Position numbers and translations under genes: made by a program
Origin: Patescibacteria group bacterium
Lineage (GTDB): Bacteria > Patescibacteriota > UBA1384 > XYA2-FULL-43-10 > 1-14-0-10-43-13
Length of the DNA: 64,000 nucleotides
Direction of reading: 5' to 3'
Assembly (NCBI GenBank): GCA_038078835.1
Contig: JBBTQI010000003.1
Location: 2,196-66,195 of the forward strand
Notes under the pieces: model-generated
The model's database searches: none
What the model was told of the DNA's origin: nothing
Seen by the model: the letters and a program-made list of their open reading frames with translations, nothing else
In this document: positions 31,190 through 56,056 of the stretch, in pieces
Layout of the letters: every line of letters starts with the position of its first letter
How positions within the stretch are numbered: position 1 is the first letter of the stretch

Positions 31190-31592
31190 AGGCTCCCTCC
31201 AATCCCCTCTCCTCCGAGAGGAGAGGGTGAGGGTGAGGAGAAAATTAAGAGTTAACTCAACTCCAGCTGAACAGATAATCTGGCACAAAATAAGATCAAG
31301 ACAATTAAACAACCTGAAGTTTCGGCGGCAACATCACTTTGGAAAATATATCGCCGATTTCTATTGCCCAGAGAAGAAATTGGTAATCGAGATCGATGGT
31401 GATGTTCATGATTTAGAATGTCAGAGAGAGCACGATAAAAAAAGAGGCCATTATTTAACGAGCTTAGGTTTGCGTGTCTTACACATTACCAATGATGAAG
31501 TGAGAAATAATCTTACAGGAGTACTAGAAAGCATCTTGCTGCAACCCCATCCCTCACCCCAACCCTCTCCCTTAAAAAGGGGGAGGGAGTAA
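31161..31592 (+). CDS. DUF559-family endonuclease-domain protein (Vsr/restriction-endonuclease-like fold) inserted between the two virB4 halves
   Basis: RKLRVNSTPAEQIIWHKIRSRQLNNLKFRRQHHFGKYIADFYCPEKKLVIEIDGDVHD...LGLRVLHITNDEV matches the DUF559 consensus. It is flanked by family-1 palindromes at 31194-31228 and 31551-31592. A likely alternative GTG start lies near 31231. Confidence 0.65.
   Translation: MKPNSTSPNKGSLQSPLLREERVRVRRKLRVNSTPAEQIIWHKIRSRQLNNLKFRRQHHFGKYIADFYCPEKKLVIEIDGDVHDLECQREHDKKRGHYLTSLGLRVLHITNDEVRNNLTGVLESILLQPHPSPQPSPLKRGRE
31194..31228. repeat. REP-like palindromic element, family 1, left flank of the DUF559 cassette
   Basis: tcccctctcctccgagaggagagggtgagggtgagg. Confidence 0.6.
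31551..31592. repeat. REP-like palindromic element, family 1, right flank of the DUF559 cassette
   Basis: tccctcaccccaaccctctcccttaaaaagggggagggag; encodes the DUF559 C-terminal tail HPSPQPSPLKRGRE. Confidence 0.6.
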
Positions 31593-36018: not shown

Positions 36019-36245
36019 ATCTCAAACAACAAGCACCAAATATCAAATAATTTCCAAATCACAAACCTCAAATAACAAATAAATTCCAGATTGCAATTAC
36101 CAGCTACAAAAGCGTTTGAAAATTAGAGATTGGGACTTGGAACTTATCTAAGATTTGTTATTTGGGATTTAAATTTTACTTGTGGTTTGGTGCTTGGTAT
36201 TTGAGGTTTCTCCGCTTTGGCGGAGAGGAGGGGTTTTGGCAACCG
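36019..36245. repeat. ~220 bp AT-rich MITE-like inverted-repeat element, copy 1
   Basis: ...caagcaccaaatatcaaataatttccaaatcacaaacctcaa...ttacttgtggtttggtgcttggtatttgaggtttctccgctttggcggagaggagg. The arms are imperfect reverse complements. It ends in a small hairpin plus GGAGAGGAGG. Confidence 0.5.
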
Positions 36246-37672
36246 GTCGGCAAAATCGGGAGGAGTACGAGGCCTTAAGGCGCAACCTTAAGGCGGCAAT
36301 CGGGCGGCGGAGTCCGACCGTTTATAGCATTGCCCAAAAGATGAACTCCTTGGGCGTCTCCGACCCCGAGCTGGGACCGATCATTGAAGCCCTCGCTTCC
36401 CGCCAATTCAGCGCTATGGCCGAAGCCCAGCGCCATTTTGGCGTGAAAACACCATCAAACCGCCCTGATTCGGCCAGACCATCGGAATCGCCAGGGAGCG
36501 GAACTGAAACCGGCACTCCCTTTGAAAATGCCGGCGAGGGCATCAAGGCCAAGAAACCGAGTGATATCGGCCGGATCGGACAGGTCGCTAAAAATATCAG
36601 AGACCTGCAAAAGCGAGCTCAAAACTACCTTCGCGCCCTCAAGGCGGCCGGCATTTTGGCCAATCCCTGGACATGGGTGGTGATCGGCATTGCGATTTTA
36701 ATTATCCTAATTATTCTCTTTGTCGTCATTCTCTCGATTGTTTTGAACAAAAACCAGATGACGCCCCATCCCGGCGGCAAATCCCAAGCCCAGGCCGCCG
36801 ACCCCATCGCCGACCGCGAATTTGTCCGGAAATTACTGGCTCTAACCGGAGACCAAGATATTAAAAACGAGGCGATCGCCGGCAACAATAAAAAACTGCT
36901 AACCCAAATCGACGACCTCATTACCGAGATCAGAAAGCCGGAAAACGCCGACCTTCCCGATCGCGACCAAATTAAAAAGGACTATCTCGCCATCAGGGAT
37001 ATCGCTCAAAATATCAGCCCCAGCAATTCCAATAATGCCGCTCTCTACGACCAGGTTATCGCCAAGCTTAAAGAAACAAGAAAATATCTCTCCGCTCCCC
37101 TCGCCGCCTACCCCGGCCCTTCGACCTTGCCGCTAAATTTGCCTCGGGATCAAATTAGAACCGGGAATAGCCTTCACCATTGCACCCGCTGGCGGCCAGA
37201 TCACTGTTTTAAAGGCTCTGGTCACGGCACCTTTGTAATGAACAGTAGCAAGCGCTCCGATGCCGTTGATCTCTCACCCACTACAAAACCTGTCCACGAT
37301 GTCAAAATCATCGCCGTTTTCGACGGCACTATTAAAGATAAAGAGCATGGCGGTGTAGACACCAAGAAAGAGTATTTTTATCTCACCGATACAACTGGCC
37401 AATATAAGGCGGTTTATGCCCACGTTAAGCTCAATGATGGTACAAAAAATGTTAAGAAGGGCGATGAAATCGGCTATATTCTCGACAGTATCGGCCATCT
37501 TCACTTTGAGCTTTACCAAATTACAAAGATCGGTTTGAGGCCATTAAATTATACCGAGGAAGATATTAAAGCTTGCGGCCTGGATAAAAATCCGCTCACT
37601 CCCAACTGCCCCAACGGCCGCCGCATCGGTGATTATTATTGGGATTACCTTACTTTGATTTTGCAGAAATGA
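36182..37672 (+). CDS. M23-family (LytM-like) metallopeptidase with an N-terminal TM helix; start uncertain
   Basis: C-terminal HCTRWRPDHCF...GDEIGYILDSIGHLHFELYQ (M23 HxxxD / HLH motifs). TM helix WTWVVIGIAILIILIILFVV. The listed ATG lies inside the MITE-like element; the real start is probably downstream (for example Met ~36344). Confidence 0.65.
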   Translation: MVWCLVFEVSPLWRRGGVLATGRQNREEYEALRRNLKAAIGRRSPTVYSIAQKMNSLGVSDPELGPIIEALASRQFSAMAEAQRHFGVKTPSNRPDSARPSESPGSGTETGTPFENAGEGIKAKKPSDIGRIGQVAKNIRDLQKRAQNYLRALKAAGILANPWTWVVIGIAILIILIILFVVILSIVLNKNQMTPHPGGKSQAQAADPIADREFVRKLLALTGDQDIKNEAIAGNNKKLLTQIDDLITEIRKPENADLPDRDQIKKDYLAIRDIAQNISPSNSNNAALYDQVIAKLKETRKYLSAPLAAYPGPSTLPLNLPRDQIRTGNSLHHCTRWRPDHCFKGSGHGTFVMNSSKRSDAVDLSPTTKPVHDVKIIAVFDGTIKDKEHGGVDTKKEYFYLTDTTGQYKAVYAHVKLNDGTKNVKKGDEIGYILDSIGHLHFELYQITKIGLRPLNYTEEDIKACGLDKNPLTPNCPNGRRIGDYYWDYLTLILQK

Positions 37673-40600
37673 AAGCGGTTTTCCAAAAATCTATCTGTAT
37701 TCTTCTGGTAATCGGGTCGCTTTTAATTCAAGTGGCGCCGATTCTGTCGTTTCCAACAAAAGTTAGAGCCCAAGAAGACATCGCCAATGAAACAACCAAT
37801 CTTAATGTGGAAACGGTCGGACCAGATGGTGAAATCTATGGTGATGTCCCGCCAGAAGTTAAGGCGTACGAAGAAACTAACTCCATCTATGATCAGATGG
37901 AGAAGCTTTACGACTTTGCCGAGGAAGCCAATTTCCGCGACGATGATCCCACCCGCCTCTCGCCAAGCGATCTCTTTGGCACGAGCGATGCAAGGATAAT
38001 TCTGCGGCAGTCGGATTATCTCAAGGTCAAAGCCCTTTACTGCATCTCGGAGTCGGTCGGGGGGTATCCCGACTACGAGAATGATCTGGCGCTTTTAGCT
38101 AAGGATTCGGGGCGAGACGAGGGCAAGCTCACCGAACTCAAAAACAGCCTGGCTGTGGCTGATCGGGTCGAGTTCAGACGAATTATGCGGGGCACCCTGG
38201 TCAAGTGGGGTGAGAGTTACGATATTAAAGCGAAACTCAAGGATGAGGCAAATCTCCGGACACTTGAGTGCATCACCGGCCTCTCCGGCAACGCGCTGGC
38301 CGAGCTTCGCGCCAGCCAAAAGGAGAAACTGGATCCGATTATCGACGATGCCGTGGAGGGATTGAAGATCGACATTAGAATTATAAAGACCCTCGTTTAT
38401 CTTGTCACACCAAAAGAGAAGGGTGGAGCGGGGCATTATCGTATTCGAGTCCACCGCATCTTTCAGATCAAAGAGCTCTCGACCGAATCCGATGCCATCC
38501 TCGGCCGCAACTTAAAACAGCAAAAGGACGGCACGGCCGCCGATATCGGCCAGGCCGAACGGGAAGGCGCCGATGCCACAATTGAGGATGCCTCCGGCAA
38601 CGCTGTCGCCGATGCCTATCTCGAAGAGATAACGCAAGAAGAGGACAAGGTTGAGGCCAACCGCTCCGCCCACGCCGACGGCCAGGCGGTTGATATTTCC
38701 GAGATTGACGACATTCGCTGCACCGTTGTCGGCCGGCGACGAGTAGGACAAGACAAAGTCGAGAACAAACCGGCCCAGCCCGTCCGACTGTCTTGGCAAA
38801 CCAATGATGGCTACAGCGCCTCCGGCGGCAACAACGCCTATGATCTTATGGAGCTGATGCGGGAAAGCGCCAAGGAAAGCCTGCGCGAGCTGGCCAATGG
38901 TCTCGGCGGCGACATCACCGATTACGAGGGCGACCTCTCCAGGGCCAACCTCGAGGACTTAACCACCCTGATCGGCAAATCGCTCTTTGCCGAGATCATT
39001 AACTCTCCCGGCGCTTTTCTTTCGGGCTACGATGTCGGCGACACGATGGAGAAGCTGGGGTCGATGTATCTGGCCGATTACCTCGGTCTCCCGCGCGAAG
39101 TCTTTGCCGGGCGCGGCATCGAGAGCTTTGACGACATCTCCGTCCTGGTCGGCGAGGCTTCGATTGAAAAGAAGCTGAATCAGCCGATCGGCCTGCTCGA
39201 GCCGATTATGGAGCCCTCGCCTGGAAATAGTCTCTCCGATCTTGAATTTTGGCTGCGCCAGATCGGCCGGCGCAAGATCGCTCTGGAGATGAATTTAAAC
39301 CTAAACGACCTCGTCGATTACTCCGGTGATAAGCCGATATCTCTTCTGGTGGGTCAAAAGGCGATCGAGAAGGGTATTGATCTTCCCCCCGGCTCCTTCA
39401 ATTATCACAGCGCCAGCTTTAACGAGCTCAAAAGTCATATCGGCACGATTAAGGTCCAAGTCATTCAAACCGACCCCGCCTGGGTCGATCGGACGCTTCA
39501 CATTCCTCTCGGTTCAACCAAGAAATTATTGGACAACAAGGATAGCGAGGAGGCTCTGGCCGAATTCATCGCTTTGGTCGGAACCACCCGGATTGAAGAC
39601 ACGGTCAGAGGATTTAAATACCTTGCCGCTCACAGCAGTGCGTACAACCTGCCGGATGACGACTGGGAGAGAGCGGTCAACGGCGACCCTGACGGCCTAA
39701 CTCAGATCGGCATCTTTATGGCCGCCCGCGCTTTTGCCGAGGATAATGACGACTACCAGCGTCTGGCCATCCAGCAATGGATTAATGATGCGGTGAGCGG
39801 CTCTGATAACGGCGCTTGCGTCAATAATCCTTACATTAAAAAGAACGTTGAGATTGCCAAAGCCGAACCCCAGTTGGTTCTGACCGAGAGCGGACAATTT
39901 AAGGAGATCACCATCTCCGAGGACAGCGCCCGCAAGGCCGGTCTGGCCGAGGGCGATCTCTGCCAGATGTTCGGACAGAAGGCCGCCGCCGCCTATGATA
40001 TCTTTGAGCGCATCGGCGAGCGCTATCTCTACTATGCTTTTGTCAACGCTGTCGCCAACGAAGAGAGAGTCAAGGTCGATTTGATGCAGGATCCCGCTTA
40101 CCATATCACCAACACCGAAGTTCTCTTCTACACCACCCGGGTTGAAAAAGCTCAGACGCTCTCCAAGAAGATCAAAAAAGATTGGGAAACGCTCAAGAAA
40201 GACGAGCGCCTAAAAGATGATCCCGAACTGATGAGCGCGCTTGACGAGATCATCGCCGCCTCGGCTGATATCTCCTCCACCCAAACCAATATATCCGGCA
40301 TCAGAGATAAGTCGCGGCAGCTAACCGCCAAGAGCAGCCGGATCAGCGCCCGGCTTCGGCAAAAGAGAGCCGAACTCTCCGATCTCTCCGACCACATTAA
40401 CGCGCTGGTTCGGGACACCCGGGAGCTCTATCGAACAGTGATGGAGTTAATCGAGGGCCAGCCGATTCCGGCCGCCTCGCTCCTGGAGGCCAACCAGATT
40501 AAAACGACCGATTTAAGCCGGCGCGAGAACGGCCGCAACAATAGTAATGTCAAAGTTACGACCGCGCCGACGCTGGTCGCCGCTTTTCTCAAGGGCCGGA

Positions 40601-43600
40601 TCAAGCCGGCACAATTCTTCAAGAAGCTGGCGATATCCAAAGTCGAATCCGAACTCAACCTCCCCAAAAATTCCGTCACCTATTACGTCCAAAACTGGGA
40701 GATCAAAGGGGTCGAGGGTAATAATATCGACGCTTTCTATCAGGCGATCGGCCAGGCCAAAATTGAGGAGAAGCTGGGTCTGCCGGAATTTTATTTCCAG
40801 GGACCGATCTATAAAGATGTTAAGGATTACAGCCAAATTGCCTGCAATGCCATCCAAGACGGCGACAATTGGCAGCTGGCGGTGGATGAACGCTCCGATA
40901 AGCTGTACGGCGAACTTCAAAATTTCTATCGAGAATCGAACAAAACAATCAAAGTTCCAGGAAGCGGCGACAATATCAACATCGACAACGAGAATCAGGT
41001 TTGCGATCTCCTCCTTCGAGCCAAGAGCGGCACGGCCGTCCGCCACCGGGAAGCCAAGCAGGTCTGGCGCGAGATTGAACGGGCCGCTATCTCGATCTTT
41101 CGGCGAGAGCAGAATGAAAAGAACAAAAATACCGACAGCACTATGACCGATGTCGCCAGGAATGTCGATTATCAGAAACTCGCCGACGGCATCAGGGGCG
41201 GCAACAATGATGTTATGCTCCGCTTCGGTCTGGCCGGCAGCCTGGAAGCCGCTTTTAATCAACTTTATTGGTCAGCTAATCCGGGCAGCCGGCAGCGCGC
41301 CGAGAAAATTGATCGTGATCTGGGCATTACCGCCGCCGGCAAAAGTCGATCCACCAACACCCAGGCTCTCTTTACCGGCGAAACTCTTCTCTGGCGCGAC
41401 GGCCAGGATATGCTGACGGAGACGGAGAAAAATTCTCTTGCCGAGAGCGGACTCACCCTCACGCAAACCCTCTCCGGCACAGAGGAATATGCGCGTAAAA
41501 TCGCTCTGTCGGAGGATGTTTTAAACCGTTATCTTCAGGTCCTAAACAACGAGATCGACCTAAACGGTTTTAAGAACTACAAACAGCATCCCGTCTCTTA
41601 TAATTCGACCAATCGCTACCAAAAGGACAGAAGAACCAATGACGACGCCGAGAAGAGCTGCAAGATAACCTACACCAAAAAGGATGGCTTTGAGGTGGCG
41701 GAAAACTCGATTCAGGATGACGCCTATGTCTATGTTGACGCCCAAGGCAAGCCCTACTCCTTCCGCAATAAGGAGGCGGCGGCGGCCTTTATTAAGGGAC
41801 AGGGATTTGAGGAGCAATATTATATCTCGCTCTTAGCTCAATACCTCTATGATCTCGGCCAATATATTCAATCCGAATATGGTCCCTTTAGCCAGGAGTA
41901 CCGCGAGCGTTTCTCGTCGACTGCCCGCGTTCAGGACGCCCTGGAACGCTTCTTGCAGCAGGCGGACATTGACCTCCTGCCCTTTGCGGAAATTATCGAT
42001 AAAGCGGAGGCAAAAAATCATCAATTCACGCCGGAAAACCAGATCCTCTTCGGCAACACTTCTCTCTCTACTCTGCGCAAACTCTTCGGCCAACCTCTCC
42101 TGGCCGACAAACCCCTTCAGCGCTACCGCCATATTGTCGGCTCGGCCGAAGCTAAAAGGATATTGACCGCCACACTCCTGCGCAACGTTGGCATTACAAT
42201 CAATCCCGAAGATTTCGGACCGGAGGATTTCCTGGCCATTCTCTCCGGCGACTACCGCCCCCTCACCCGTCTGGGAGCAACCTTAATCGACAAAAGCATG
42301 GATCTTCCCCAGGGCTCAACCCGGGCGCTCTTTGCCATTCAGTCGCTGGACGATATCACCTGCGTTTTGAGTGATATCGGCGCTCAACGCCTGGGCAAGC
42401 TGGTCGGCCTGAAACGCCTGCCCCTAAACGGCGAGATCGGCGCGCACTATCTCTCCCAGCTCTATCACAATATGGGCCAGGCCAAGATCGAGGAAACTCT
42501 GGGTCTCCCCTACGGCAGTTTCCGCGGCCAGGCTCTCTCAACTTATCCGGGCAGTCCGGGCCTCATCGAGAACATTGGGCACCTTAACTTTGCCCTGGCT
42601 TTTGAAATCCCCCTTGAGGGCGTAATTGAAGGTTCAAATGAGACTATCGCCAGCGCCGCCCTCCAGGTTATCGGCGAGATAATGGGCCAGGCCGCGGTTG
42701 AGAAGTATCGGAAAGCCTCAACAACCAATCTCTTAAAGCTCATTCGCGACAATCTGGCTTACACTACCAGCCGCAAGATCAATTCATTAGAATCTCTCGA
42801 TCGGACAATATATTACCGGGTTTCCGAACTAGTCAAAGCCGATGACAAAAACGGCAAGTTCTGGCAGGGCGATCTTAAAAAAGAAACGGAGGACTTCTTT
42901 GCCCGCCTGCGCTATCTCGACGGCGTCTTTGAGCTTGATTCCCTCTCGGCCGACAGTCGAACCTTCGCCCTCTTTAACGGCAAAATTAAGCCCGACGCTT
43001 ACGCCGAGCGGGTGGCGGCGATGATGGCCCGGCGCTTAACCGCAACCTCATTGGCTAACGCCTTCGGTATTGACGAGGAGGACGCTAAGGACGCTAAGGC
43101 CGCCTATGAGATTATCCGCAACTGGAACAATATCTTTCACTGCTATGATAAAGACTTCAATTCATACTCCGGTCCCATGGGGCTTGACGATGCCTGCGCC
43201 GGCTGGAACCAGAACTGGGGCAAGCTCTATGACGGCTTAAGTAAAATTGTCGATGTCGATCTGGATGACCGGGCCGGCTTGTCGGACGGCAGTATGCGGG
43301 CGATGATCAACAATCCCGAGATCGCCCCCCAGATTCTTCTGGCCAACGGCGCCGCCGATCTGGATGAGAAGTGGGAGCTTGACACACCCTCTGCCGCCGA
43401 TATAACCGGCGCCGTCATTGGCGCTCTCGGCGGGAGTGGTATTGCCGACATTAAAGACGGCACCTTTGCCACCGCCTATACTTCAGCCCTGAATTGGCAG
43501 GCTTATAAAAACTTTACTCCGGCCGAGCGGGCCAACCTGAGCAATGTCCGGAGTTTTTGCGCCAAAAACTACGCCGATCCCGACTTAAATTTGCTGACCG

Positions 43601-45960
43601 CCGCCGAACGGGAACAACTCGAGAGTAAAAGCGGCGACAAGGTTACGCTCGATATTATCCGCGACCGGGCCATCCGCCGCTGTAGCGAAAATTACCGGCT
43701 GGATGGATCGATTGATCCTCCGACCAAACAGGCGGGCAAAAACCGCTATGCCGGACTTCAAAGATATCTTTCCGGCCGCATCTCGGCCAAAATCAGCGAC
43801 GCGACCGGGGGAACAATTAAAATGCCGGCGGCCGACCTCGAACGGCTCGTCTTTGAGGGCGATATGCGCTTTGTGGAGATTGCCGCCGTCTCTTATCTTA
43901 TGAATATTACCGTCAATGACACCGGCGGCAAGGAAAAGGCGCCCAACGGATATATCATAAGCTACGACGATATCAGGCTGGCGATTGTCGGCGACCGGGG
44001 CGCCGAGGAGAGTGCCGCCCTGACTCAGCAATACGTGGCGGCCCAAGGGGTGACCGTGGTGCCGGAGGAAGCCCAGCGGCCCTACGGCGCCACCTGCCCC
44101 GACGGCTCCTCCGATGTCCAGTGTATCGCCCTGACGCAGGACGCCAGCCAGTCTTTAGCCAGGAACCACGGCGATCTGACCAAGGCCAACACCGCCGCCA
44201 TCCGCCACGATAACGGCATCGACCCCAACCTGACCGAGGAGCAGATGAAGGAAGCGATCGCCGCCCGCCAGATCGAGTGGGAGCGCACGGTGGCGGAAAA
44301 AGATTGCCGGCGGATTACCGCAACTATTGATACAACGGAAGCCGGCCAGCAAAACGCCGCCTCGCCTGAAGATGTTGCCGCCTGCCGGCAGGCCATGGAC
44401 GGCCTCAAGCGTCTCGAGGGCGCCGACTTGGAGGGGCGCGGTCAGGCCCGCCAATACTTCCGCGACACCCTGATGTACCGCACTCTGGATATTATGCTCT
44501 GGAAGATGGACCAAAACATCTACCCGGGCTTTGCCTACGATATGATTAAGGGCAATTGGCAAACCCGCATTAAAGCTATTGGTATTTACGTCTTAAACGG
44601 CGCCGAACGAGGCGAGCTCTTCGGCCAAAAACTGCCCGAGTGGGCCAAGGAGGCCGCCGAGATCGGACTGGCAGTCGACTACCTTGTCAACATCAGCGGC
44701 CGCCGCAACGGCGACCGCGTCCTGGATCAATTCATCACCGACAGAAAAGTTTATAACTTCTTCGAAAATAAACTAAGAGACTACTTTCAGGAGCAGTTTA
44801 ACGTCGGCCTGCCGGCCGGCATCCTTGGCGGCGTTCTGATCGGCACTGTCACCAGCGACTGGGGCTTTAACACCGGCAATGAGAATTATAAATTCACCGT
44901 CGGCGGTAAGGAACAGACCTTTGCCACTCTTAAGAACATTATTGAAGAATCAGTCAAGCGAACCATTTTCCGCTGGGCCGATAAAAAACTTAATATACCG
45001 GCCGGCACGATCTACCAAGCCTATAACCTTTATCGCGACATCACCAAGGCCCGCTTCGCTCTCAACAACTTCAACGCGGCCGGCGGCGTGGCTGGAGTCG
45101 GTCTGACCAATGCCGAAAACCTTGCCTCGCTTTCAACCGGCAGTAAAGTGACATACCAAGGCGTAGAGTGGACAAAGCAGGCAGACGGCAACTTTATGGC
45201 TACGGCCGATGGTACGGATACCATTATTGATGCCGATACACTTGGCGAGGCACAAGCAACCAAACAGGGCGACACTCTTAAACAGGGTATCAATGCCGCC
45301 AAGGCCGCCTTTGTTACTTATGTCGTCACAACGGTAGTTAACAAACTCTTCGGCGAGGCGATGGCCAAGTTCGATCAATCCTTAGGATTGGTGCCGGGAA
45401 CAACGGGAATGATTGTTAACACAGCGATCGGCGTCGGCGTCGGTATGGCCTTTGGTATTATGCCCGATCCTTGGTTGATCGGCGCCCAACTCCTTTATAT
45501 CGTTGCGATGAATCTCTTTAGTGTTTACAAAACCGACGTTTACTGTACCGCTGACGGCTTTTACCCCGACAAGCAAGCCGCCCGGCGGACGCAGCAGTTA
45601 AACTCGGCGGTTAATCCGACCGGGCTGGGCATTTGGGACGGCAGCAACACCGACACCCATCGTGATAAGTCGATCGGCGCCGCTCAAGCCCGCGCCCGCC
45701 AGCTTATCGGCGATGTTTTGCAAATGCAGTTTAATCCCTACTTTGCCGATGTTATTCCCAACCAGATAATGACCGGGCGCGAGGAGGATGTTGCCTACTG
45801 GAACGAACTCGCTAATGAAAACTTATGCCGCCGTATGGGGCCGGAGTGGAGTGCTGATGCTGCCGGCGTCTGCACCACCAGCGAAACTCATACCCCGGAT
45901 GAACGCGCCGGAGTATGGGCCAATCCGCAGACAGTCGGGTTTACGCATATCGGTTTCTAG
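37669..45960 (+). CDS. Giant secreted/surface protein (~2764 aa) with internal repeats and a C-terminal hydrophobic anchor
   Basis: Start at MKAVFQKSICILLVIGSLLIQVAPILSFPTKVRAQE (signal peptide). One uninterrupted 8.3 kb ORF. The motif [IL]G[QE]A[KS]IE[EK][KT]LGLPxGxF recurs near 39150, 39355, 40741 and 42473. The last ~120 aa contain two to three TM helices. Confidence 0.6.
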   Translation: MKAVFQKSICILLVIGSLLIQVAPILSFPTKVRAQEDIANETTNLNVETVGPDGEIYGDVPPEVKAYEETNSIYDQMEKLYDFAEEANFRDDDPTRLSPSDLFGTSDARIILRQSDYLKVKALYCISESVGGYPDYENDLALLAKDSGRDEGKLTELKNSLAVADRVEFRRIMRGTLVKWGESYDIKAKLKDEANLRTLECITGLSGNALAELRASQKEKLDPIIDDAVEGLKIDIRIIKTLVYLVTPKEKGGAGHYRIRVHRIFQIKELSTESDAILGRNLKQQKDGTAADIGQAEREGADATIEDASGNAVADAYLEEITQEEDKVEANRSAHADGQAVDISEIDDIRCTVVGRRRVGQDKVENKPAQPVRLSWQTNDGYSASGGNNAYDLMELMRESAKESLRELANGLGGDITDYEGDLSRANLEDLTTLIGKSLFAEIINSPGAFLSGYDVGDTMEKLGSMYLADYLGLPREVFAGRGIESFDDISVLVGEASIEKKLNQPIGLLEPIMEPSPGNSLSDLEFWLRQIGRRKIALEMNLNLNDLVDYSGDKPISLLVGQKAIEKGIDLPPGSFNYHSASFNELKSHIGTIKVQVIQTDPAWVDRTLHIPLGSTKKLLDNKDSEEALAEFIALVGTTRIEDTVRGFKYLAAHSSAYNLPDDDWERAVNGDPDGLTQIGIFMAARAFAEDNDDYQRLAIQQWINDAVSGSDNGACVNNPYIKKNVEIAKAEPQLVLTESGQFKEITISEDSARKAGLAEGDLCQMFGQKAAAAYDIFERIGERYLYYAFVNAVANEERVKVDLMQDPAYHITNTEVLFYTTRVEKAQTLSKKIKKDWETLKKDERLKDDPELMSALDEIIAASADISSTQTNISGIRDKSRQLTAKSSRISARLRQKRAELSDLSDHINALVRDTRELYRTVMELIEGQPIPAASLLEANQIKTTDLSRRENGRNNSNVKVTTAPTLVAAFLKGRIKPAQFFKKLAISKVESELNLPKNSVTYYVQNWEIKGVEGNNIDAFYQAIGQAKIEEKLGLPEFYFQGPIYKDVKDYSQIACNAIQDGDNWQLAVDERSDKLYGELQNFYRESNKTIKVPGSGDNINIDNENQVCDLLLRAKSGTAVRHREAKQVWREIERAAISIFRREQNEKNKNTDSTMTDVARNVDYQKLADGIRGGNNDVMLRFGLAGSLEAAFNQLYWSANPGSRQRAEKIDRDLGITAAGKSRSTNTQALFTGETLLWRDGQDMLTETEKNSLAESGLTLTQTLSGTEEYARKIALSEDVLNRYLQVLNNEIDLNGFKNYKQHPVSYNSTNRYQKDRRTNDDAEKSCKITYTKKDGFEVAENSIQDDAYVYVDAQGKPYSFRNKEAAAAFIKGQGFEEQYYISLLAQYLYDLGQYIQSEYGPFSQEYRERFSSTARVQDALERFLQQADIDLLPFAEIIDKAEAKNHQFTPENQILFGNTSLSTLRKLFGQPLLADKPLQRYRHIVGSAEAKRILTATLLRNVGITINPEDFGPEDFLAILSGDYRPLTRLGATLIDKSMDLPQGSTRALFAIQSLDDITCVLSDIGAQRLGKLVGLKRLPLNGEIGAHYLSQLYHNMGQAKIEETLGLPYGSFRGQALSTYPGSPGLIENIGHLNFALAFEIPLEGVIEGSNETIASAALQVIGEIMGQAAVEKYRKASTTNLLKLIRDNLAYTTSRKINSLESLDRTIYYRVSELVKADDKNGKFWQGDLKKETEDFFARLRYLDGVFELDSLSADSRTFALFNGKIKPDAYAERVAAMMARRLTATSLANAFGIDEEDAKDAKAAYEIIRNWNNIFHCYDKDFNSYSGPMGLDDACAGWNQNWGKLYDGLSKIVDVDLDDRAGLSDGSMRAMINNPEIAPQILLANGAADLDEKWELDTPSAADITGAVIGALGGSGIADIKDGTFATAYTSALNWQAYKNFTPAERANLSNVRSFCAKNYADPDLNLLTAAEREQLESKSGDKVTLDIIRDRAIRRCSENYRLDGSIDPPTKQAGKNRYAGLQRYLSGRISAKISDATGGTIKMPAADLERLVFEGDMRFVEIAAVSYLMNITVNDTGGKEKAPNGYIISYDDIRLAIVGDRGAEESAALTQQYVAAQGVTVVPEEAQRPYGATCPDGSSDVQCIALTQDASQSLARNHGDLTKANTAAIRHDNGIDPNLTEEQMKEAIAARQIEWERTVAEKDCRRITATIDTTEAGQQNAASPEDVAACRQAMDGLKRLEGADLEGRGQARQYFRDTLMYRTLDIMLWKMDQNIYPGFAYDMIKGNWQTRIKAIGIYVLNGAERGELFGQKLPEWAKEAAEIGLAVDYLVNISGRRNGDRVLDQFITDRKVYNFFENKLRDYFQEQFNVGLPAGILGGVLIGTVTSDWGFNTGNENYKFTVGGKEQTFATLKNIIEESVKRTIFRWADKKLNIPAGTIYQAYNLYRDITKARFALNNFNAAGGVAGVGLTNAENLASLSTGSKVTYQGVEWTKQADGNFMATADGTDTIIDADTLGEAQATKQGDTLKQGINAAKAAFVTYVVTTVVNKLFGEAMAKFDQSLGLVPGTTGMIVNTAIGVGVGMAFGIMPDPWLIGAQLLYIVAMNLFSVYKTDVYCTADGFYPDKQAARRTQQLNSAVNPTGLGIWDGSNTDTHRDKSIGAAQARARQLIGDVLQMQFNPYFADVIPNQIMTGREEDVAYWNELANENLCRRMGPEWSADAAGVCTTSETHTPDERAGVWANPQTVGFTHIGF

Positions 45961-46016: not shown

Positions 46017-46289
46017 TTATCCTAAATTAATAATCCTGATTGATTTCACGTACTTCTTCCCCATTTTGGAGTTAATGAGGTCGATCAGCACCTCCTCCTT
46101 CATTTGAAGTTCCTGGGCGGCGGCGGATGAGGCAACGGAAACCTTTAAAATCGCCCGGGAGAAAGATTCGGCCCGAAAAAGATCGTTGCCCTGTTCGTTG
46201 GCCAGAAAGCAAACCTGAGCGCTTAGAGCGGTTTTACCCAAGCCCTTCTTGGCCAGGGTTCCCAGTATAAAATCACCGAGTTTTTTCAT
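46017..46289 (-). CDS. DUF721-family small protein (the small gene typically found next to recF)
   Basis: MKKLGDFILGTLAKKGLGK...LKVSVASSAAAQELQMKEEVLIDLINSKMGKKYVKSIRII matches the DUF721 pattern, and it sits immediately downstream of recF. Confidence 0.5.
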   Translation of the reverse strand: MKKLGDFILGTLAKKGLGKTALSAQVCFLANEQGNDLFRAESFSRAILKVSVASSAAAQELQMKEEVLIDLINSKMGKKYVKSIRIINLG

Positions 46290-46303
46290 AAGTCTTATAC
46301 GTC

Positions 46304-47347
46304 TTATAATTCTATTATTTTTGCCTTCTTTAAAATCTTTTCCGGCAACAGCCCTCGGTCGGCGGCGGTGATAATTGTCTGATGATCGCTGATTAAGCTA
46401 AGCAGATGCTCCCGCCGCTGGGCATCGAACTCTGAAAAAACATCATCAAGGAGAAGAAGGGGTTCTGCACCTTCACCTCCACCCCGGGAGACGCCTTCTA
46501 AGAATTTCAGTTCGGCAACCTTTAGCGCCAAGATGGCGGACTTAATCTCCCCTCTCGAGGCAAAGTTTGCCATATCCCGATTATCCAATAAGAAGATAAG
46601 GTTGTCCGTATGCGGACCAAGATTGGTCCTCTCGTCGGCAATATCGCGGCCGCGAGAGAGGGGCAGATCCCGGACCAGATCGTTCGATCGCCGGTCATAA
46701 TTCAACTTCAACATAACATTATCAGAATTGGCAATAACCGCATAATGATCCGAGATAAAAAGATTCAGATTGTCAACAGCGCTCTGCCGTCTTTGGCCGA
46801 TAAATACACCGAGCCGAATTAACTCGCCATCCCAATAATTCAACTCGGAAACCGCAGCGCTCTTTTGCTTAATCAGACGCAAAAGGCGATTGCGCTGGCG
46901 CCTGATTTTAGTATAGTCAACCAGGGTACGCAGATACTCATAATCGGTTTGGCTGATGAGAATATCAAAAAATCGGCGGCGATCGCCGGGAGAACCGGTA
47001 ATAATCGCCATTGTCTCCGGAGAGAAGATTACCGCCCTTAAGATGCCGACAAGGCCCGTTGTCCGCCGCGGCACGCCCTTGACCCGGACCTTCATTATAA
47101 ACTGCGGTTCTCGGCATAAAACCAAATCCAGATCATCGCCGGTCAGGCGGGCAAAATTCTGGTGATAGTTAATCAAGTTCTGTTTCTTCTCCTCCCGATA
47201 AGACCGGCAGAAGGAGAGCATTGCTATCGCCTCAATAATATTGCTCTTGCCGGCGCCATTCCGACCGGTAATAATAGTAAGAGGAGAGAAATCCAGTCTT
47301 AAGTCCAGATGATTGCGAAAGTTTTGGAGATGAAGAGTTTTAAGCAT
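46304..47347 (-). CDS. recF: DNA replication and repair protein RecF
   Basis: MLKTLHLQNFRNH...ITGRNGAGKSNIIEAI Walker A, and an SMC-like C-terminal LLLDDVFSEFD. Confidence 0.9.
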   Translation of the reverse strand: MLKTLHLQNFRNHLDLRLDFSPLTIITGRNGAGKSNIIEAIAMLSFCRSYREEKKQNLINYHQNFARLTGDDLDLVLCREPQFIMKVRVKGVPRRTTGLVGILRAVIFSPETMAIITGSPGDRRRFFDILISQTDYEYLRTLVDYTKIRRQRNRLLRLIKQKSAAVSELNYWDGELIRLGVFIGQRRQSAVDNLNLFISDHYAVIANSDNVMLKLNYDRRSNDLVRDLPLSRGRDIADERTNLGPHTDNLIFLLDNRDMANFASRGEIKSAILALKVAELKFLEGVSRGGGEGAEPLLLLDDVFSEFDAQRREHLLSLISDHQTIITAADRGLLPEKILKKAKIIEL

Positions 47348-47386
47348 AAGTCTTATATGACCTATAAGACATATGGGTCTTATGGA

Positions 47387-48493
47387 CTAATTATCTATCT
47401 TCAGCGGCATCACTATATATAAATAGTCCCTATCATCATCAAAGCCGAGAACGCCCGAGGAGGAGCCGTCATTAAGTTTGAGTGAGATATTCTTGCTGGA
47501 GACGGCACCAAGAGCATCAATAAGATAACGGGCGTTAAAGGCGATTTCCATCTCTTCGCCGGAGACCTCGGCCGAGACCCTGGAGGTAGCATCGCCCGAC
47601 TGGGCCAGGGCGGAGTTAACAACCAGCTCCGTTTTTTTGGTTGTTACCCGAATGTTGTTAGCCGCATCCTTGGCAAACAACGCCGCCATCTTGATTCCAG
47701 CTAAAAACTCCTTGCTGTCGGCCACAGCCGTGACCTTAAAATCCCGAGGAATGATCTGGTTATAGGGCGGAAAAGCGCCCTCAATCAAGCGCGAGACAAG
47801 ACTGGTTTCCCCGGCTGAAAAGAAGATCTGGTTTTCGGCGGCCGAGATACTGATAACATTAACCTCCGCCTGGCTGGAGATCACCCTCACAACCTCGGCC
47901 ATTGTTTTTGTCGGAACGATCATCTTGCGCTCCGGGACCTCGGTCTCGAGAATTAATTTCTTTTCTGCCAGGCGGTACGAATCAGTGGCCGCCAAGACCA
48001 GGTCCTTGCCGGAAAAGTGGCAGTAAATTCCGGCCAGCGTCGGACGGGTTTCATCGTTGGCCGGCGCGATTATTACCTTCTTGACCGCATCAATAAAATC
48101 CGCCTTCTTTATCCGGCAAGAGAAGTCGGTCGGGATCTCGGGAATTGTGGGGAACTCATCTGCGCCAATTCCGTTAATATTTGCCTCGAAGTGAGCCGAC
48201 TTAAGGTTCAGTTTAAGATCGGTCGCTTTCATCTCGATCGAGTCATCGTTGTTATTCACGATGAAGTCAGCTAATAGGCGCGCCGGCACCGTTAGTTCGC
48301 CCTCGGTCTCAACCTTGCCGCCGACAGTCGTTTTAATTCCTATCTCCAAATCCGTCGCGGCAAGCGTTATCTGTCCCTTTTTTGCCGACAAAAGAATATT
48401 ACTAAGCACCGGCAGAGTTGTCCGTGTTCCAACTACACGTGAAACCTGGTTCAGCGCTCGGGTAAAATTAACTTGTTTGATTGTTGCTTTCAT
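47387..48493 (-). CDS. dnaN: DNA polymerase III beta sliding clamp
   Basis: MKATIKQVNFTRALNQVSRVVGTRTTLPVLSNILL typical DnaN N-terminus; three-domain length. Start at the internal Met (48493). Confidence 0.9.
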   Translation of the reverse strand: MKATIKQVNFTRALNQVSRVVGTRTTLPVLSNILLSAKKGQITLAATDLEIGIKTTVGGKVETEGELTVPARLLADFIVNNNDDSIEMKATDLKLNLKSAHFEANINGIGADEFPTIPEIPTDFSCRIKKADFIDAVKKVIIAPANDETRPTLAGIYCHFSGKDLVLAATDSYRLAEKKLILETEVPERKMIVPTKTMAEVVRVISSQAEVNVISISAAENQIFFSAGETSLVSRLIEGAFPPYNQIIPRDFKVTAVADSKEFLAGIKMAALFAKDAANNIRVTTKKTELVVNSALAQSGDATSRVSAEVSGEEMEIAFNARYLIDALGAVSSKNISLKLNDGSSSGVLGFDDDRDYLYIVMPLKIDN

Positions 48494-48793
48494 CACAATA
48501 CCTTTCGCTAATATTTTCCTGTGGATAACTCCCTGATTTATCCGCAACCCTGTGGATAACTTATGAAAAACTCGTCGCCTGTAAGGGCGCCGGTTTAAGC
48601 CGGTATATTCTTATCCCCGACACCGGGTATTAATCCACATCTTTTCCCCCACCTTTGTCCAGAACTTATCCCCAACCTCCTCCTTTGTTTTTGATATTTG
48701 ATATCTGATATTTGATATTTATCCACTTATCCACAAGCCTTACTATTACTACTATTAAGTATTTATTATCTTTTCAATAAAACAGGGGATAAG
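48494..48793. other. Chromosomal replication origin (oriC) between dnaA and dnaN, with DnaA boxes and an AT-rich unwinding element
   Basis: TGTGGATAA at 48520-48528 and 48551-48559, TTATCCGCA near 48538, TTATCCAC/TTATCCACA at 48719-48735, plus AT-rich (tgatattt)n repeats at ~48690-48725. A further TTATCCACA lies upstream of dnaA at 50228-50236. Confidence 0.7.
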
Positions 48794-50182
48794 TTAACGA
48801 AGAAAAGTGTAAATTCTCTCTTTAATCATCAATATATCATCTTTGACTCGATCGTTTTTATTTAACTCGGATTCAATCTTGCGATAACCGTGAATGACTG
48901 TCGAGTGATCTTTCCCGCCCATAATACGGCCGATATCGGGAAAGGACAACCCGCCCTCGCTTTTGAGTAAAAACATTGCTATCTGCCGCGGCAAAACCAA
49001 CTCTTTTGTTCGGCGTTTTCCCAGGATATCATCTATCGGAACCTTGAAGTGGCGATGAATCTCCCGCATAATGAGATCGGGAGTGATTGTTTGGCGCCGC
49101 TCTTTAATCATCTCCCCCAGAATTTCATTGACGCAATCGGTATCAATCGGGACATTTTTAAGCTCGCATGTCGCGATAATCTTGGTTAGGACCCCTTCAA
49201 GCTCACGAATGGAGGAGTGGATATTTTCGGCGATAAAACGGATTACCTCGGGTTCGATGTGGACTCCGTGCTTGCGCGCCTTATGACGCAGGATAGCCTC
49301 TCGTGTTTCCAGGTCGGGCTGGCTGATGTCGGTCACCATTCCCCCCTCGAAGCGTGTTTGGAGCCTGATTTCAAGTCCTCTGATGGATTTGGGGTGGGTA
49401 TCGGCGGTTAAAACCACCTGTTTTTTGTTTTGGTGTAGGTGATTAAAGGTGTGAAAGAATTCATCCTGAGTGCTTTCTTTGCGGGAGAGGAACTGAATAT
49501 CGTCGATCAGAAGAAGGTCGACATTGCGGTACCGGTCTTTAAAGTCCTTTGCCCGGCCGTGCCCCGCCTCAACGGCGGTGATAAAATCATTAATGAAGGT
49601 TTCGCTTGAGATATACAAAACCTGTTTGCCGGGACTCTTCTCTAAGAAAGCGTGGCCGATTGCCTGAATAAGATGAGTTTTGCCTAATCCCGAGTTGCCG
49701 TAAATAAAGAGCGGATTGTACTGACTGCCGGGACGGCTGGCGACGGCAAGGGCGGCGGCGTGAGCAAGTTGATTTGAGGGACCGACAATAAAATCATTAA
49801 ATTTATAATCCTCGTTCAAATTGTTGCCGATGAGCGACTTTTGCCGGTTGGCATTGACGCGAGCCGGCTCAGAGTTATCCACAGGGCTGTGGATAACTCT
49901 GGATTTTTGAAGGATATTTTTAAACTCCGGCGGGGGTGAGGCGATCTTGAACTTGATGCCGACGACTGTTTCTGTCACCTGCTTTTGCAGGGCGTTTTGT
50001 ATCTCTTTTAAATACTTACGTTTCAGCCAGTTTTCAAAGAAGATATTCGGCGCCCCGATTGTAAAATAACCCTTTTTAAAATCAGCTAAAAAGGCGCCCC
50101 GAAACCAGGTTTGATAGTTGGCTGTTGAGAGCGAAACCTCTAACTCATTCAGAACATTGCGCCAAATTTGGACTAAATCCAT
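48794..50182 (-). CDS. dnaA: Chromosomal replication initiator DnaA
   Basis: AAA+ Walker A GNSGLGKTHL, LLIDDIQF, and a C-terminal DNA-binding domain (...HSTVIHGYRKIE). Start at MDLVQIW (50182). Confidence 0.95.
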   Translation of the reverse strand: MDLVQIWRNVLNELEVSLSTANYQTWFRGAFLADFKKGYFTIGAPNIFFENWLKRKYLKEIQNALQKQVTETVVGIKFKIASPPPEFKNILQKSRVIHSPVDNSEPARVNANRQKSLIGNNLNEDYKFNDFIVGPSNQLAHAAALAVASRPGSQYNPLFIYGNSGLGKTHLIQAIGHAFLEKSPGKQVLYISSETFINDFITAVEAGHGRAKDFKDRYRNVDLLLIDDIQFLSRKESTQDEFFHTFNHLHQNKKQVVLTADTHPKSIRGLEIRLQTRFEGGMVTDISQPDLETREAILRHKARKHGVHIEPEVIRFIAENIHSSIRELEGVLTKIIATCELKNVPIDTDCVNEILGEMIKERRQTITPDLIMREIHRHFKVPIDDILGKRRTKELVLPRQIAMFLLKSEGGLSFPDIGRIMGGKDHSTVIHGYRKIESELNKNDRVKDDILMIKERIYTFLR

Positions 50183-50401
50183 AGCTGGAAAATCCCTTAA
50201 AAAAATAGACAACTCAAATATAGCAAGTTATCCACAGGGTACGTCAATAGAGCGTTGGGCAAGGCATCCATCGTCGCTAAAGTGACTTCTCCTACAAAAT
50301 TACAAATTTTACAAATACTATGGTGAACAGGTTCGAATCAATTTGTAATATTTGTAGTTTCGAAAGATTTGTAATTTTGTAGGATATTTAGGTGTATTGT
50401 G

Positions 50402-55738: not shown

Positions 55739-56056
55739 TTAATTAACGGCAGTATTGGCAGTGCCGGCAACGGCGTTGACGATGACGTAAGCCAGAACGA
55801 TGATGATGATGCCGATAATGGCGTTAACCACGCCCTGCTGGCCCTTCTTGGCGGCATCGGGGTTGCCGGCGGCGGTCAAGTAGAGAATGCCGGAGTAGAT
55901 CAGGTAGATAACGGCGATGGCGCCGGCAATCGGCAGAACCACGCTTGTAATAGCGCCGCTGATTAATGGAACAACTCCCTCCTCTCCGCCCTTGGCGGTG
56001 TCCAGGGTTATGTCACTCAAACCCTCATCAGCAAGGGCTCTTTGAACCAAATTCAT
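55739..56056 (-). CDS. Small VirB2/TrbC-like (T4SS pilin-like) two-helix membrane protein, paralogue 1
   Basis: ...VVLPIAGAIAVIYLIYSGILYLTAAGNPDAAKKGQQGVVNAIIGIIIIVLAYVIVNAV. Start at the internal Met MNLVQ preceded by GGAGGAG. Shares the core motif with the four other pilin-like copies. Confidence 0.5.
   Translation of the reverse strand: MNLVQRALADEGLSDITLDTAKGGEEGVVPLISGAITSVVLPIAGAIAVIYLIYSGILYLTAAGNPDAAKKGQQGVVNAIIGIIIIVLAYVIVNAVAGTANTAVN

Follow-up and report, generated by a model that had tools for sequence, protein, structure and literature searches.

What does the 8.3 kb gene at the end of a Patescibacteria T4SS operon encode, and what might so large a protein do at the cell surface? 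To our knowledge, no T4SS before that of Patescibacteria had been shown to be essential for the growth of its bearer (by Tn-seq in Southlakia), and we know of no substrate, envelope-spanning parts or host-contact element assigned to it. In published surveys, adhesins are absent from Patescibacteria T4SS and VirB8 nearly so (PMC12102498). The window analysed here, a stretch of 64,000 nucleotides from a Patescibacteria group bacterium, carries such an operon, and its last gene amounts to about 1% of a sub-megabase genome:

37669..45960, + strand: giant gene, 2763 codons plus stop (ORF listing and translation)

The giant gene is a single genuine reading frame

The longest frame runs from a TTG start at 37639 to 45960; the ATG at 37669, which overlaps the stop codon of the upstream M23 gene (ATGA), gives a product of 2763 aa. 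An earlier note on this DNA had described one uninterrupted ORF of 8.3 kb and about 2764 aa, and this was confirmed (37669-45960, + strand, 2763 aa). The product is MEK9155831.1 (NCBI; P0001). The fusion of several genes that the note had raised as a possible artefact could be excluded, because an identical protein was found on 5 contigs from three sources and in 27 species-representative genomes the homologue, of 2300–3160 aa, is likewise one ORF. The reading that misassembly or a missed frameshift joined several genes has next to no probability: no point was found in its favour, and it is refuted by the independent identical copies, by dozens of independent genomes and metagenomes in which one ORF has this length and architecture, and by the coupling of the two extreme chain ends in conservation and co-variation (see below). 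The gene is real and codes for a previously undescribed giant helical surface protein.

The giant gene closes a conserved T4SS operon next to the replication origin

The following genes surround it in the window:

23327..26161, + strand: VirB6-like candidate, 944 aa, polytopic (6 hydrophobic segments within aa 1-270)
29581-29976, + strand: PrgI/VirB3 (profile match)
30131-31189, + strand: TrsD (profile match)
31161-31592, + strand: inserted DUF559 gene (profile match)
31603-33441, + strand: VirB4 (NCBIfam conju_CD1110, 368 bits)
33498-34748, + strand: CHAP hydrolase, membrane-anchored, wall-remodelling
34750-36018, + strand: PEGA plus TolB-like propeller protein, membrane-anchored, wall-remodelling
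36182-37672, + strand: M23 peptidase, membrane-anchored, wall-remodelling
46017..50212, − strand: dciA, recF, dnaN and dnaA, convergent (same arrangement in related loci)

The gene therefore lies, as had been proposed, directly downstream of T4SS genes, with PrgI, TrsD, VirB4 and the wall genes upstream on the same strand, and the T4SS locus borders on the replication origin. The 56-nt gap between the giant gene and dciA showed neither a terminator nor a promoter consensus. In every related locus examined the giant gene was the last of the T4SS operon. The order PrgI-TrsD-VirB4-[hydrolase]-PEGA/propeller-[M23 or LAS-like]-giant, followed by convergent dciA-recF-dnaN-dnaA, held wherever the contig reached in 28 of 28 loci, all from the window's own lineage; the VirB6-like candidate is kept upstream of PrgI in related loci. 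In a more distant lineage (VirB4 57–61% identical), a subfamily of 1400 aa lies between VirB4 and convergent recF-dnaN-dnaA, and no recognisable PEGA/propeller, M23 or dciA homologues were seen in these loci. The search for homologues at the same locus that had been suggested thus returned the same placement in more than 50 loci of at least two distant lineages, with dciA only in the window's lineage.

Co-location and co-orientation with virB4, trsD and prgI are conserved, which by context places the gene within a Patescibacteria MPF-FATA-like T4SS. The protein itself matched no named VirB, Prg or Trs component in Pfam, NCBIfam or PDB, and the T4SS literature cited here (PMC10633639, PMC12102498, PMC12857230) does not mention the family.

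A signal peptide and a membrane hairpin bracket a helical chain

Homologues formed about 195 clusters at 50% identity (E<1e-3), nearly all of 1400–3300 aa, which share the architecture and the N-block described below. Most full-length members follow one plan: an N-terminal hydrophobic segment, the N-block, a transmembrane hairpin and a C-terminal His. The full protein had no significant match among Pfam, NCBIfam, PHROGs or PDB sequences, the full-family profile gave only coiled-coil noise against PDB (aa 840-960), and Foldseek searches of both AF2 halves against PDB returned none at E<0.001, the structures that came up being generic four-helix bundles or solenoids. The suggestion that the protein may be novel was therefore supported in every family and structure library searched.

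The features that set its topology are:

37669..37770, + strand: Sec-type signal peptide, aa 1-34, with a VRA|Q cleavage-like site (sequence, hydropathy)
45403..45528, + strand: transmembrane hairpin, aa 2579-2620 (hydropathy, AF2, relatives)

The signal peptide reads MKAVFQKSICILLVIGSLLIQVAPILSFPTKVRA|QE and coincides with a hydropathy peak at aa 1-32, which bears out its earlier prediction; most relatives also have a hydrophobic N-terminal segment. Two to three C-terminal transmembrane helices had been proposed. Two are clear from hydropathy (2579-2599 and 2601-2620) and the third candidate (2377-2395) is weak. In most full-length relatives the hairpin lies about 150–250 aa ahead of the C-terminus. 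With the signal peptide at one end and the hairpin near the other, both the C-terminal domain and everything N-terminal of the hairpin would lie outside the cytoplasmic membrane.

Between these elements, about 2500 residues consist mostly of alpha-helical repeat modules, and the AF2 models, for which the two halves were modelled separately, are almost entirely alpha-helical. The modules are:

39082..39438, + strand: helical repeat module 1, aa 472-590, with two LGLPxG-type motifs (HMM, window profiles)
40561..40806, + strand: repeat module, aa 965-1046 (HMM, window profiles)
42193..42573, + strand: repeat module, aa 1509-1635 (window profiles, E 1.8e-11 to module 1)
42910..43500, + strand: weaker repeat modules, aa 1748-1800 and 1851-1944 (window profiles)

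A recurring motif of about 17 aa had been noticed before, and its four copies were recovered, beginning at aa 494, 561, 1027 and 1603 (DNA 39148, 39349, 40747 and 42475). The repeats are real: an iterated HMM of the motif found 178 copies in 44 homologues and 0 matches in each of 20 shuffles of the giant protein. The true unit, however, is larger, about 60–120 aa, as judged by comparing profiles of 200-aa windows with one another. Within the protein, module 1 (472-590) is matched best by 1509-1635 (113 columns); further pairs are 965-1035 with 1516-1610, 486-540 with 979-1035, 604-635 with 1748-1780, and 1527-1620 with 1851-1944.

The N-block resembles half of a LAS peptidase

Two features define the conserved N-terminal part:

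38350..38838, + strand: N-block, aa 228-390, similar to the N-terminal half of LAS/VanY (conservation; weak profile matches; 195 clusters)
38665..38694, + strand: SxHxxGxAxD motif, S333-D342, with H335 and D342 as putative zinc ligands (conservation, profile alignment)

Conservation is highest in the N-block (aa 235-380), with the consensus IDIR..YLVTPK.GGAGH ... SAHADGQAVDISEIDDIRCT ... PVRLSWQT. Its motif, S333-A-H335-ADGQAV-D342 in the giant protein, has the H-x(3-6)-D arrangement of the LAS zinc ligands and is near-invariant across the family: the alignment keeps the Asp in 137 of 146 members and the His in 117 (more if an insertion is allowed). The spacing from His to Asp varies, with an insertion of about 12 aa in distant members. 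Since SAH is retained there ahead of the insertion, the apparent loss of the His is an alignment artefact, and the idea that in distant members one zinc-binding His had shifted out of the N-block into the C-terminal HxH was dropped.

Searches pointed repeatedly to the same clan of peptidases. The family profile aligned exactly on the motif with the VanY-type DD-carboxypeptidases 6a6a and 5zhf in PDB (E=1.3). Compact N-blocks of distant members matched Pfam VanY at E 0.004–0.006 (profile positions 39-87) and, weakly, M15_4, M15_3 and DUF5715; N-blocks of other members gave weak matches to Extensin-like_C, M15_3 and HH_signal. No LAS family matched above its curated threshold, the scores being 16–17 bits (best VanY 17.4, E 0.004) against a cut-off of 25. 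The view of the earlier note that neither an adhesin nor an enzymatic domain was evident thus holds for adhesins, none being found; the enzymatic part needs revision in the light of SxHxxGxAxD and these sub-threshold matches. At the level of sequence, the N-block looks like the first half of a LAS/VanY peptidase.

No third-ligand His (HxH or ExxH) is conserved in the N-block 40–80 residues past D342, where KLAWQT is found instead. Nor does the giant protein have the canonical catalytic residue (first His of HxH, or Glu of ExxH): a Thr stands where HxH would begin, and catalysis by the putative site is uncertain. AF2 modelled the N-block as alpha/beta with low confidence (pLDDT 31–78), and a split domain could not form in these models because the halves were modelled apart.

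The two ends of the chain co-vary

Two features bear on the other end of the chain:

45529..45957, + strand: conserved C-terminal domain, aa 2621-2763 (conservation; AF2 pLDDT 72–90 for aa 2653-2763)
38719..38721, + strand: codon of Cys351, the putative disulfide partner of Cys2626 (co-occurrence, co-variation)

The C-terminal domain of about 140 aa contains C2626-x-ADGFYP and P-x-QIMTGR-x-EDV and ends in THIGF, which includes H2760. A His at position −4 is present in 137 of 146 full-length members, and distant relatives have HxH at the chain end.

Cys351 and the Cys of C-x-ADGYxP occurred together in 70 members, were jointly missing from 24 and were discordant in none (70/0/0/24), although shared ancestry inflates these counts and phylogeny confounds them; on a rough tree, parsimony gave about 5 state changes for C351. 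The number of Cys residues in the C-terminal 170 aa is odd when C351 is present and even when it is absent. Among the 249x200 N-by-C column pairs (49,800), Cys351/Cys2626 ranked first by APC-corrected mutual information and L374 (of KLAWQT) with T2759 (of THIGF) third. From this co-variation, both chain ends appear to sit at the producer cell's own membrane, and N-block and C-terminal domain may be in physical contact, held by a Cys351-Cys2626 disulfide.

In some genomes the gene just upstream codes for a contiguous LAS-like domain, '..SSHYCGQGVDIS..(about 65 aa)..HTHIGF'. With hhalign, the giant N-block aligned to these neighbours at P=1.4e-4, over the 14-column motif only, and the C-terminal domain to their C-half (P-x-Q ... 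HIGF) at P=1.6e-3. The C-terminal domain alone had no LAS match in Pfam or PDB by profile search, N-block and C-terminus stitched together matched Pfam no better than the N-block alone, and a protein homologue search with the L007 LAS-like domain returned nothing. The two distant ends may nevertheless together form a zinc site like that of a cell-wall peptidase.

A possible envelope scaffold clasped by its own ends

On the basis of SxHxxGxAxD in the N-block, the LAS-like THIGF end and the Cys351/Cys2626 coupling, we propose that the giant protein is a membrane-anchored envelope scaffold of the T4SS whose ends clamp into a LAS-like module that binds or cleaves peptidoglycan, a reading to which we give a probability of about one half. 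The N-block would pack on the juxtamembrane C-terminal domain, both held by the disulfide, and H335 and D342 together with H2760 of the terminal THIGF strand would build one LAS-type (VanY/M15-like) site, in a domain split by a helical insertion of about 2200 residues. Such a module might bind or cut peptidoglycan stem peptides at the membrane surface, beside the CHAP, M23 and PEGA/propeller proteins made from the same transcript. The helical loop would be a scaffold spanning wall and S-layer, a role suggested by topology only, through or beside which a VirB2-type pilus or channel would emerge, and host contact may fall to its outer parts, which evolve fast. A bolder version is tentative, less probable than not: a LAS domain split by 1100–2900 residues and rejoined by a disulfide outside the cell would close a giant membrane-anchored helical loop, the missing wall- and S-layer-spanning stalk of the essential T4SS and possibly its host-contact element, in place of the VirB8, VirB10 or PrgB functions that are missing from surveys.

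The divergence of the protein also invites the reading that the epibiont reaches out with these helical repeats to bind its host's surface, as PrgB-type adhesins do in Gram-positive conjugation systems, the conserved ends serving only as anchors. Homologues are only 24–45% identical, against 76–86% for VirB4, and the family alignment has variable, indel-rich segments; the protein is giant and extracytoplasmic, and PrgB-like adhesins were absent from the Patescibacteria T4SS clusters of a published survey (PMC12102498). Such fast divergence is compatible with surface exposure, but adhesion is not thereby shown. Neither adhesin-type or Ig domains nor beta-rich repeats, LPXTG or wall-anchor motifs were found (Pfam, AF2; the C-terminus is THIGF), conservation is strongest in enzyme-like motifs rather than in anchors, and both chain ends appear at the producer's own membrane. 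The earlier suggestion of a host-attachment factor thus found no support in the almost all-alpha models or in the co-variation, and we regard it as rather unlikely, although it is compatible with a scaffold, whose loop might still make contact with the host by its outer part.

A long all-alpha chain with a hydrophobic hairpin and a wall-hydrolase-like motif could also be a ruler or plug extruded through the T4SS, like a phage tape measure, with the hairpin inserting into the host membrane. The top BFVD structure matches were indeed tape-measure proteins, but they were non-significant (E 0.1–1, TM-score about 0.08, rmsd >35 A) and, being so poor, reflect only a long helical protein. As PHROGs gave no match, the locus in the chromosomal origin region has no phage context, and the Sec signal peptide and conserved paired cysteines favour Sec export and folding outside the producer over passage through a T4SS channel, this reading is improbable.

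Improbable, too, is an extended VirB6-type channel subunit or mating-pair-stabilisation protein (F TraG-like or rickettsial extended VirB6-like): extended VirB6 proteins are on record (PMC12857230) and this T4SS-operon protein combines transmembrane helices with a very large hydrophilic domain, but it has only two such helices against five or more in VirB6, matches no VirB6, TrbL or TraG, and shares its operon with the 944-aa polytopic protein that already fits VirB6.

As a scaffold or otherwise, the family is a large, strictly syntenic T4SS subunit in many Patescibacteria lineages, and it offers testable targets in the H335/D342/H2760 site, the C351-C2626 pair and the repeat modules. The split-domain architecture, if true, would be evolutionarily unusual in that a small enzyme fold has become the clasp of a giant extracellular loop.

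Comparison with known systems

PrgB-type and other giant adhesins are likewise large, surface-located and tied to mating or host contact, but they are beta-rich, with repeat-Ig or polymer-adhesin domains and LPXTG anchors, none of which the giant protein has. Phage tape-measure proteins with lytic domains are also very long and alpha-helical, with hydrophobic segments and often a wall-hydrolase module; the giant protein differs in its Sec signal peptide and chromosomal T4SS and shows no sequence or significant structural similarity to them.

VirB1-type wall hydrolases have 300–900 aa and recognisable SLT, CHAP, NlpC/P60 or M23 domains. Those of PrgK (pCF10), TraG (pIP501), CwlT (ICEBs1) and TcpG (pCW3) type are, like the giant protein, membrane-anchored, extracytoplasmic products of virB4-adjacent genes in T4SS operons. 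In monoderms, their peptidoglycan-hydrolase modules open the wall for the T4SS (PMC12102498). The giant protein differs from them in its 2763 aa, of which >80% are helical repeats, in a LAS-like signature that stays below all thresholds, and in a putative active site assembled from two chain ends. With the LAS metallopeptidases (VanY/VanX, Peptidase_M15, MepA (M74) and lysostaphin-type M23) it shares SxHxxGxAxD (H-x6-D) and a C-terminal His strand (HxH in distant family members). It differs from these enzymes in that some 2400 residues, rather than 40–80, separate the third-ligand motif from the first, the catalytic Glu/His is not conserved in it and no match exceeds the gathering threshold.

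A published parallel comes from Southlakia, in which the T4SS is essential for epibiotic growth (PMC10633639; PMC12102498). SEML1_0007 of Ca. Southlakia epibionticum ML1 has 1113 aa with a Hedgehog/DD-peptidase domain at 951-1105, lies directly after VirB4 within the essential T4SS cluster SEML1_0006-0019, and is itself essential in Tn-seq (PMC10633639). Its LAS domain is contiguous and C-terminal and it is 2.5 times shorter than the giant protein; no protein of about 1113 aa with a complete C-terminus was among the 150 best N-block profile matches. Both proteins are nevertheless large, otherwise unannotated and encoded just downstream of virB4 in a dnaA-proximal Patescibacterium T4SS cluster, and the LAS-fold domain of SEML1_0007 and its PEGA and lysozyme/CHAP neighbours recall the LAS-like N-block and the PEGA and CHAP neighbours of the giant gene.

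A single gene encodes an exported giant protein

The earlier note had proposed that one reading frame spans the whole 8.3 kb, and the ORF listing of the window confirmed an uninterrupted frame at 37639-45960 (+ strand). Its likely start is the ATG at 37669, which overlaps the TGA of the preceding gene (ATGA) and gives a protein of 2763 aa, here called the giant. The protein carries export signals: sequence and hydropathy bore out the expected signal peptide, which is of the Sec type with two Lys, a hydrophobic core and VRA|Q. Of the two to three C-terminal TM helices claimed, hydropathy supported a clear hairpin at aa 2579-2620, while the third segment (2377-2395) was weaker.

The same protein is recorded as NCBI MEK9155831.1 ('Patescibacteria group bacterium') and occurs in identical form on five contigs from three sources. 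BLAST identity of 45 homologues to the giant was 26-39%; their lengths are 2300-3160 aa in 43 cases, with two shorter proteins of 1529 and 1762 aa. The few named ones bear Patescibacteria or Berkelbacteria labels, with one exception (Verrucomicrobiae). Among GTDB species representatives, 27 loci with giant homologues were detected, each holding one long ORF where no contig end cuts it. An assembly or annotation artefact as the origin of the ORF is excluded; the giant is a real gene and a member of a real family.

Conservation in the giant peaks at aa 235-380 (N-block). The N-block profile was searched against 1.84 billion cluster representatives and matched 195 clusters at E<1e-3, of which 156 also passed E<1e-10, with family lengths from ~1400 to ~3300 aa, fragments aside. 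Most full-length members share an N-terminal hydrophobic segment and an N-block (~aa 150-560), a TM hairpin 150-250 aa ahead of the C-terminus, and the C-terminal form [T/H/V]-H-[I/V]-[G/R/A]-[F/Y/W], with His at position -4 in 137/146.

The giant closes a conserved T4SS operon

The giant belongs to the T4SS operon; it lies on the same strand as the T4SS genes and, as had been stated before, directly downstream of them.

Genes of the T4SS operon and its flank (window coordinates)
21473-23320, +, 615-aa unannotated protein with signal peptide and two C-proximal hydrophobic segments
23327-26161, +, 944-aa polytopic membrane protein, VirB6-like candidate, six hydrophobic segments in first 270 aa
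upstream of giant, +, PrgI/VirB3
upstream of giant, +, TrsD
upstream of giant, +, VirB4 (conju_CD1110 family, 368 bits)
33498-34748, +, CHAP hydrolase with N-terminal TM segment
between CHAP and M23 genes, +, PEGA + TolB-like propeller protein with N-terminal TM segment
36182-37672, +, M23 peptidase with N-terminal TM segment
downstream of giant, convergent, dciA, recF, dnaN, dnaA
beyond dnaA, rnpA, yidC, PilB-type ATPase and five VirB2-like pilin genes in array

The large unannotated 615-aa and 944-aa proteins stand first in the operon; the latter is conserved in distant lineages and is probably the VirB6 equivalent. Homologues at the same locus in relatives, which the earlier note had asked about, were found: the position of the giant is kept in 28/28 loci as far as contigs reach, in the order PrgI-TrsD-VirB4-[hydrolase]-PEGA/propeller-[M23]-giant, then dciA-recF-dnaN-dnaA. 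Within the giant subfamily the giant itself is only 24-45% identical, against 76-86% for VirB4. The shorter, 1400-aa subfamily, whose lineage has a VirB4 only 57-61% identical to that of the window, likewise lies between VirB4 and convergent recF-dnaN-dnaA, in loci without recognisable PEGA/propeller, M23 or dciA homologues.

In the hydrolase slots of the window (33498-34748 and 36182-37672) and the 28 loci, a membrane-anchored N-terminal part of ~240 aa is conserved and catalytic modules are exchanged between genomes: CHAP, Peptidase_M15_4, VanY or M74 after VirB4, and before the giant either M23 or a LAS-like domain that is contiguous and ends in HIHIGF.

Several further genes of the window were also noted. 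An AbiEi/AbiEii toxin-antitoxin pair (28129-29504, +) is inserted between a 380-aa gene and prgI; the window's other upstream genes had no match in the ~1-3 kb of sequence preceding prgI in 21 related loci. A tyrosine recombinase gene of the phage-integrase family (17364-18560, -) lies ~3 kb upstream of the operon. A DUF559 (Vsr-like endonuclease) gene (31161-31592, +) between trsD and virB4 overlaps the trsD 3' end by 29 nt; it was found in none of ~90 related loci examined and would therefore seem to be a selfish gene that entered an essential operon recently. One protein of the pilin array (55739-62419) has 1203 aa (56953-60567, -), with a T4SS_pilin (VirB2-like) domain as its last ~70 residues, and may be a giant pilin fusion; it lies among four ordinary pilin paralogues of 107-131 aa.

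Helical repeat modules in the giant

The recurring ~17-aa motif was recovered at aa 494, 561, 1027 and 1603 (DNA 39148, 39349, 40747 and 42475). An HMM iterated over the family detected the motif 178 times across 44 proteins and not once in 20 shuffles. To find the repeat unit, profiles of 200-aa windows along the family alignment were compared with one another, which revealed a larger module with the motif as its core: aa 472-590 matched 1509-1635 (prob 97%, E 1.8e-11, 113 columns), 965-1035 matched 1516-1610 (95%), 486-540 matched 979-1035 (93%), 604-635 matched 1748-1780 (89%) and 1527-1620 matched 1851-1944 (87%). Weaker copies of x-D-x-x-L-x-L-P-x-G-S/T run on as far as the TM hairpin.

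AF2 models of aa 36-1235 and aa 1564-2763, built separately from 44-sequence alignments, had a mean pLDDT of 69 and pTM of 0.57 and 0.43, respectively. Both are alpha-helical almost throughout; short beta elements occur in the N-block, the C-terminal domain and two hairpins (aa 1059-1072 and 2406-2419). The C-terminal domain was modelled confidently (pLDDT 72-90). Foldseek against PDB gave no match at E<0.001. Neither the giant (against Pfam, NCBIfam, PHROGs and PDB sequences) nor the family profile (against PDB sequences) had a significant match, and none of the 45 homologues contains a Pfam domain.

The two ends of the giant resemble parts of a LAS peptidase

The signature zinc motif (H-x6-D) of VanY/M15-type LAS peptidases is SxHxxGxAxD, and a third His is also required in a LAS domain. 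The N-block consensus (IDIRxxKTLVYLVTPKxxGGAGH ... SxESD ... TAA ... NxSAHxxGQAVDISEIDDIRCT ... PxKLAWQT) contains this motif; D347 and Q377 are conserved, and E273 is invariant in 44 close homologues and Glu in 109/146 members across the superfamily. The only non-trivial PDB matches of the N-block profile were VanY-type DD-carboxypeptidases (6a6a, 5zhf) on SxHxxGxAxD (E=1.3). Single members weakly matched Extensin-like_C, Peptidase_M15_3 and HH_signal. Compact N-blocks of distant members matched Pfam VanY (E 0.004-0.006) at profile positions 39-87, which take in SGYR-like and SxH motifs, as well as M15_4, M15_3 and DUF5715. No LAS-family match of the N-block passes a curated threshold; judged from these profiles, it is improbable that its matches fall on a single peptidase clan by chance. 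No conserved His follows D342 within the N-block.

In some related genomes, the place directly upstream of the giant (M23 in the window) is taken by a different gene, in whose product the LAS-like domain is contiguous, '...SSHYCGQGVDIS...(~65 aa, including F-P-x-Q-x-I-G-P)...HTHIGF', the last motif lying at or a few residues ahead of the C-terminus. In these neighbours the first motif weakly matches M15_4, and the last one the C-terminal end of M15_3. The giant's N-block counterpart of the first motif is SAHADGQAVDIS; the C-terminal domain of the giant contains I-P-N-Q-I-M-T-G-R and finishes with ...FTHIGF, with Thr in place of the first His of HxH; distant members end in a full HxH (DHIHIGF or DHIHVRW). 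By hhalign, the N-block motif aligned with the neighbours at P=1.4e-4 and the C-terminal domain with their C-half at P=1.6e-3 over 73 columns. Stitching N-block and C-terminus together gave no better Pfam match.

The two ends also covary. Cys351 (in DDIRCT) and Cys2626 (six residues after the second hairpin helix, in C-x-ADGYxP) occur together in 70 members and are jointly missing from 24, with zero discordance wherever the motif was locatable. A rough tree, for which an unrelated region was used, puts the changes of state of C351 at about five. When 249x200 N-by-C column pairs were scanned without bias, C351 and C2626 came first in APC-corrected mutual information, and the pair of L374 (KLAWQT) and T2759 (THIGF) came third. 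The last 170 residues hold an odd number of Cys (3, 1 or 5) in 90/102 members with C351 and an even number in 42/44 without it. Of the 20 mature cysteines of the giant, all but 351 and 2626 could be matched with a neighbour in the sequence, a pattern suggestive of successive local disulfides and a single long-range clasp. We infer a disulfide between the N-block and the juxtamembrane C-terminal domain, and propose that H335, D342 and H2760 form one putative LAS-type site. This site may be catalytic or bind peptides only: it has Thr at the first HxH position, although E273, D347 and Q377 are conserved.

Possible function of the giant

We file the giant as a T4SS-associated wall-remodelling or scaffold protein. 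Its N-terminus would lie outside the membrane and the hairpin would bring the chain back outside, which would therefore place the LAS-like clasp on the membrane's outer side. The ~2200 residues of helical modules would then form a closed loop into or through the wall and S-layer, and the giant, with the co-transcribed CHAP, M23 and PEGA/propeller proteins, might act on the wall surrounding the T4SS channel or pilus, opening and organising it. The variable outer segments of the giant may touch the host. An architecture in which a split LAS clasp closes a giant loop outside the cell would be new; we give this tentative reading a probability of about 0.3.

Among rival readings, an adhesin may coexist with the scaffold role; the fast divergence of the giant fits, but no adhesin feature was found in it. 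A tape-measure or translocon protein would agree with matches that are non-significant and of the 'long helical protein' kind only, and the Sec signal speaks against it. An extended VirB6 is at odds with a count of only two TM helices and with the other VirB6 candidate in the operon.

Comparison with known systems

The T4SS itself is known, and the giant subunit family is without a significant match in the sequence and structure libraries searched. The Patescibacteria T4SS has been characterised with its MPF-FATA affinity, TrsD/VirB4 pair, pilin arrays and dnaA proximity, and neither a PrgB-like adhesin nor, with few exceptions, VirB8 is reported (PMC12102498). No mention of the giant family was found in the sections consulted of this literature (PMC12102498, PMC10633639, PMC12857230). 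In Southlakia the T4SS is essential (PMC10633639; reviewed in PMC12857230). The closest experimental precedent there is SEML1_0007, a protein of 1113 aa with a Hedgehog/DD-peptidase domain, whose gene directly follows virB4 and was scored essential (PMC10633639).
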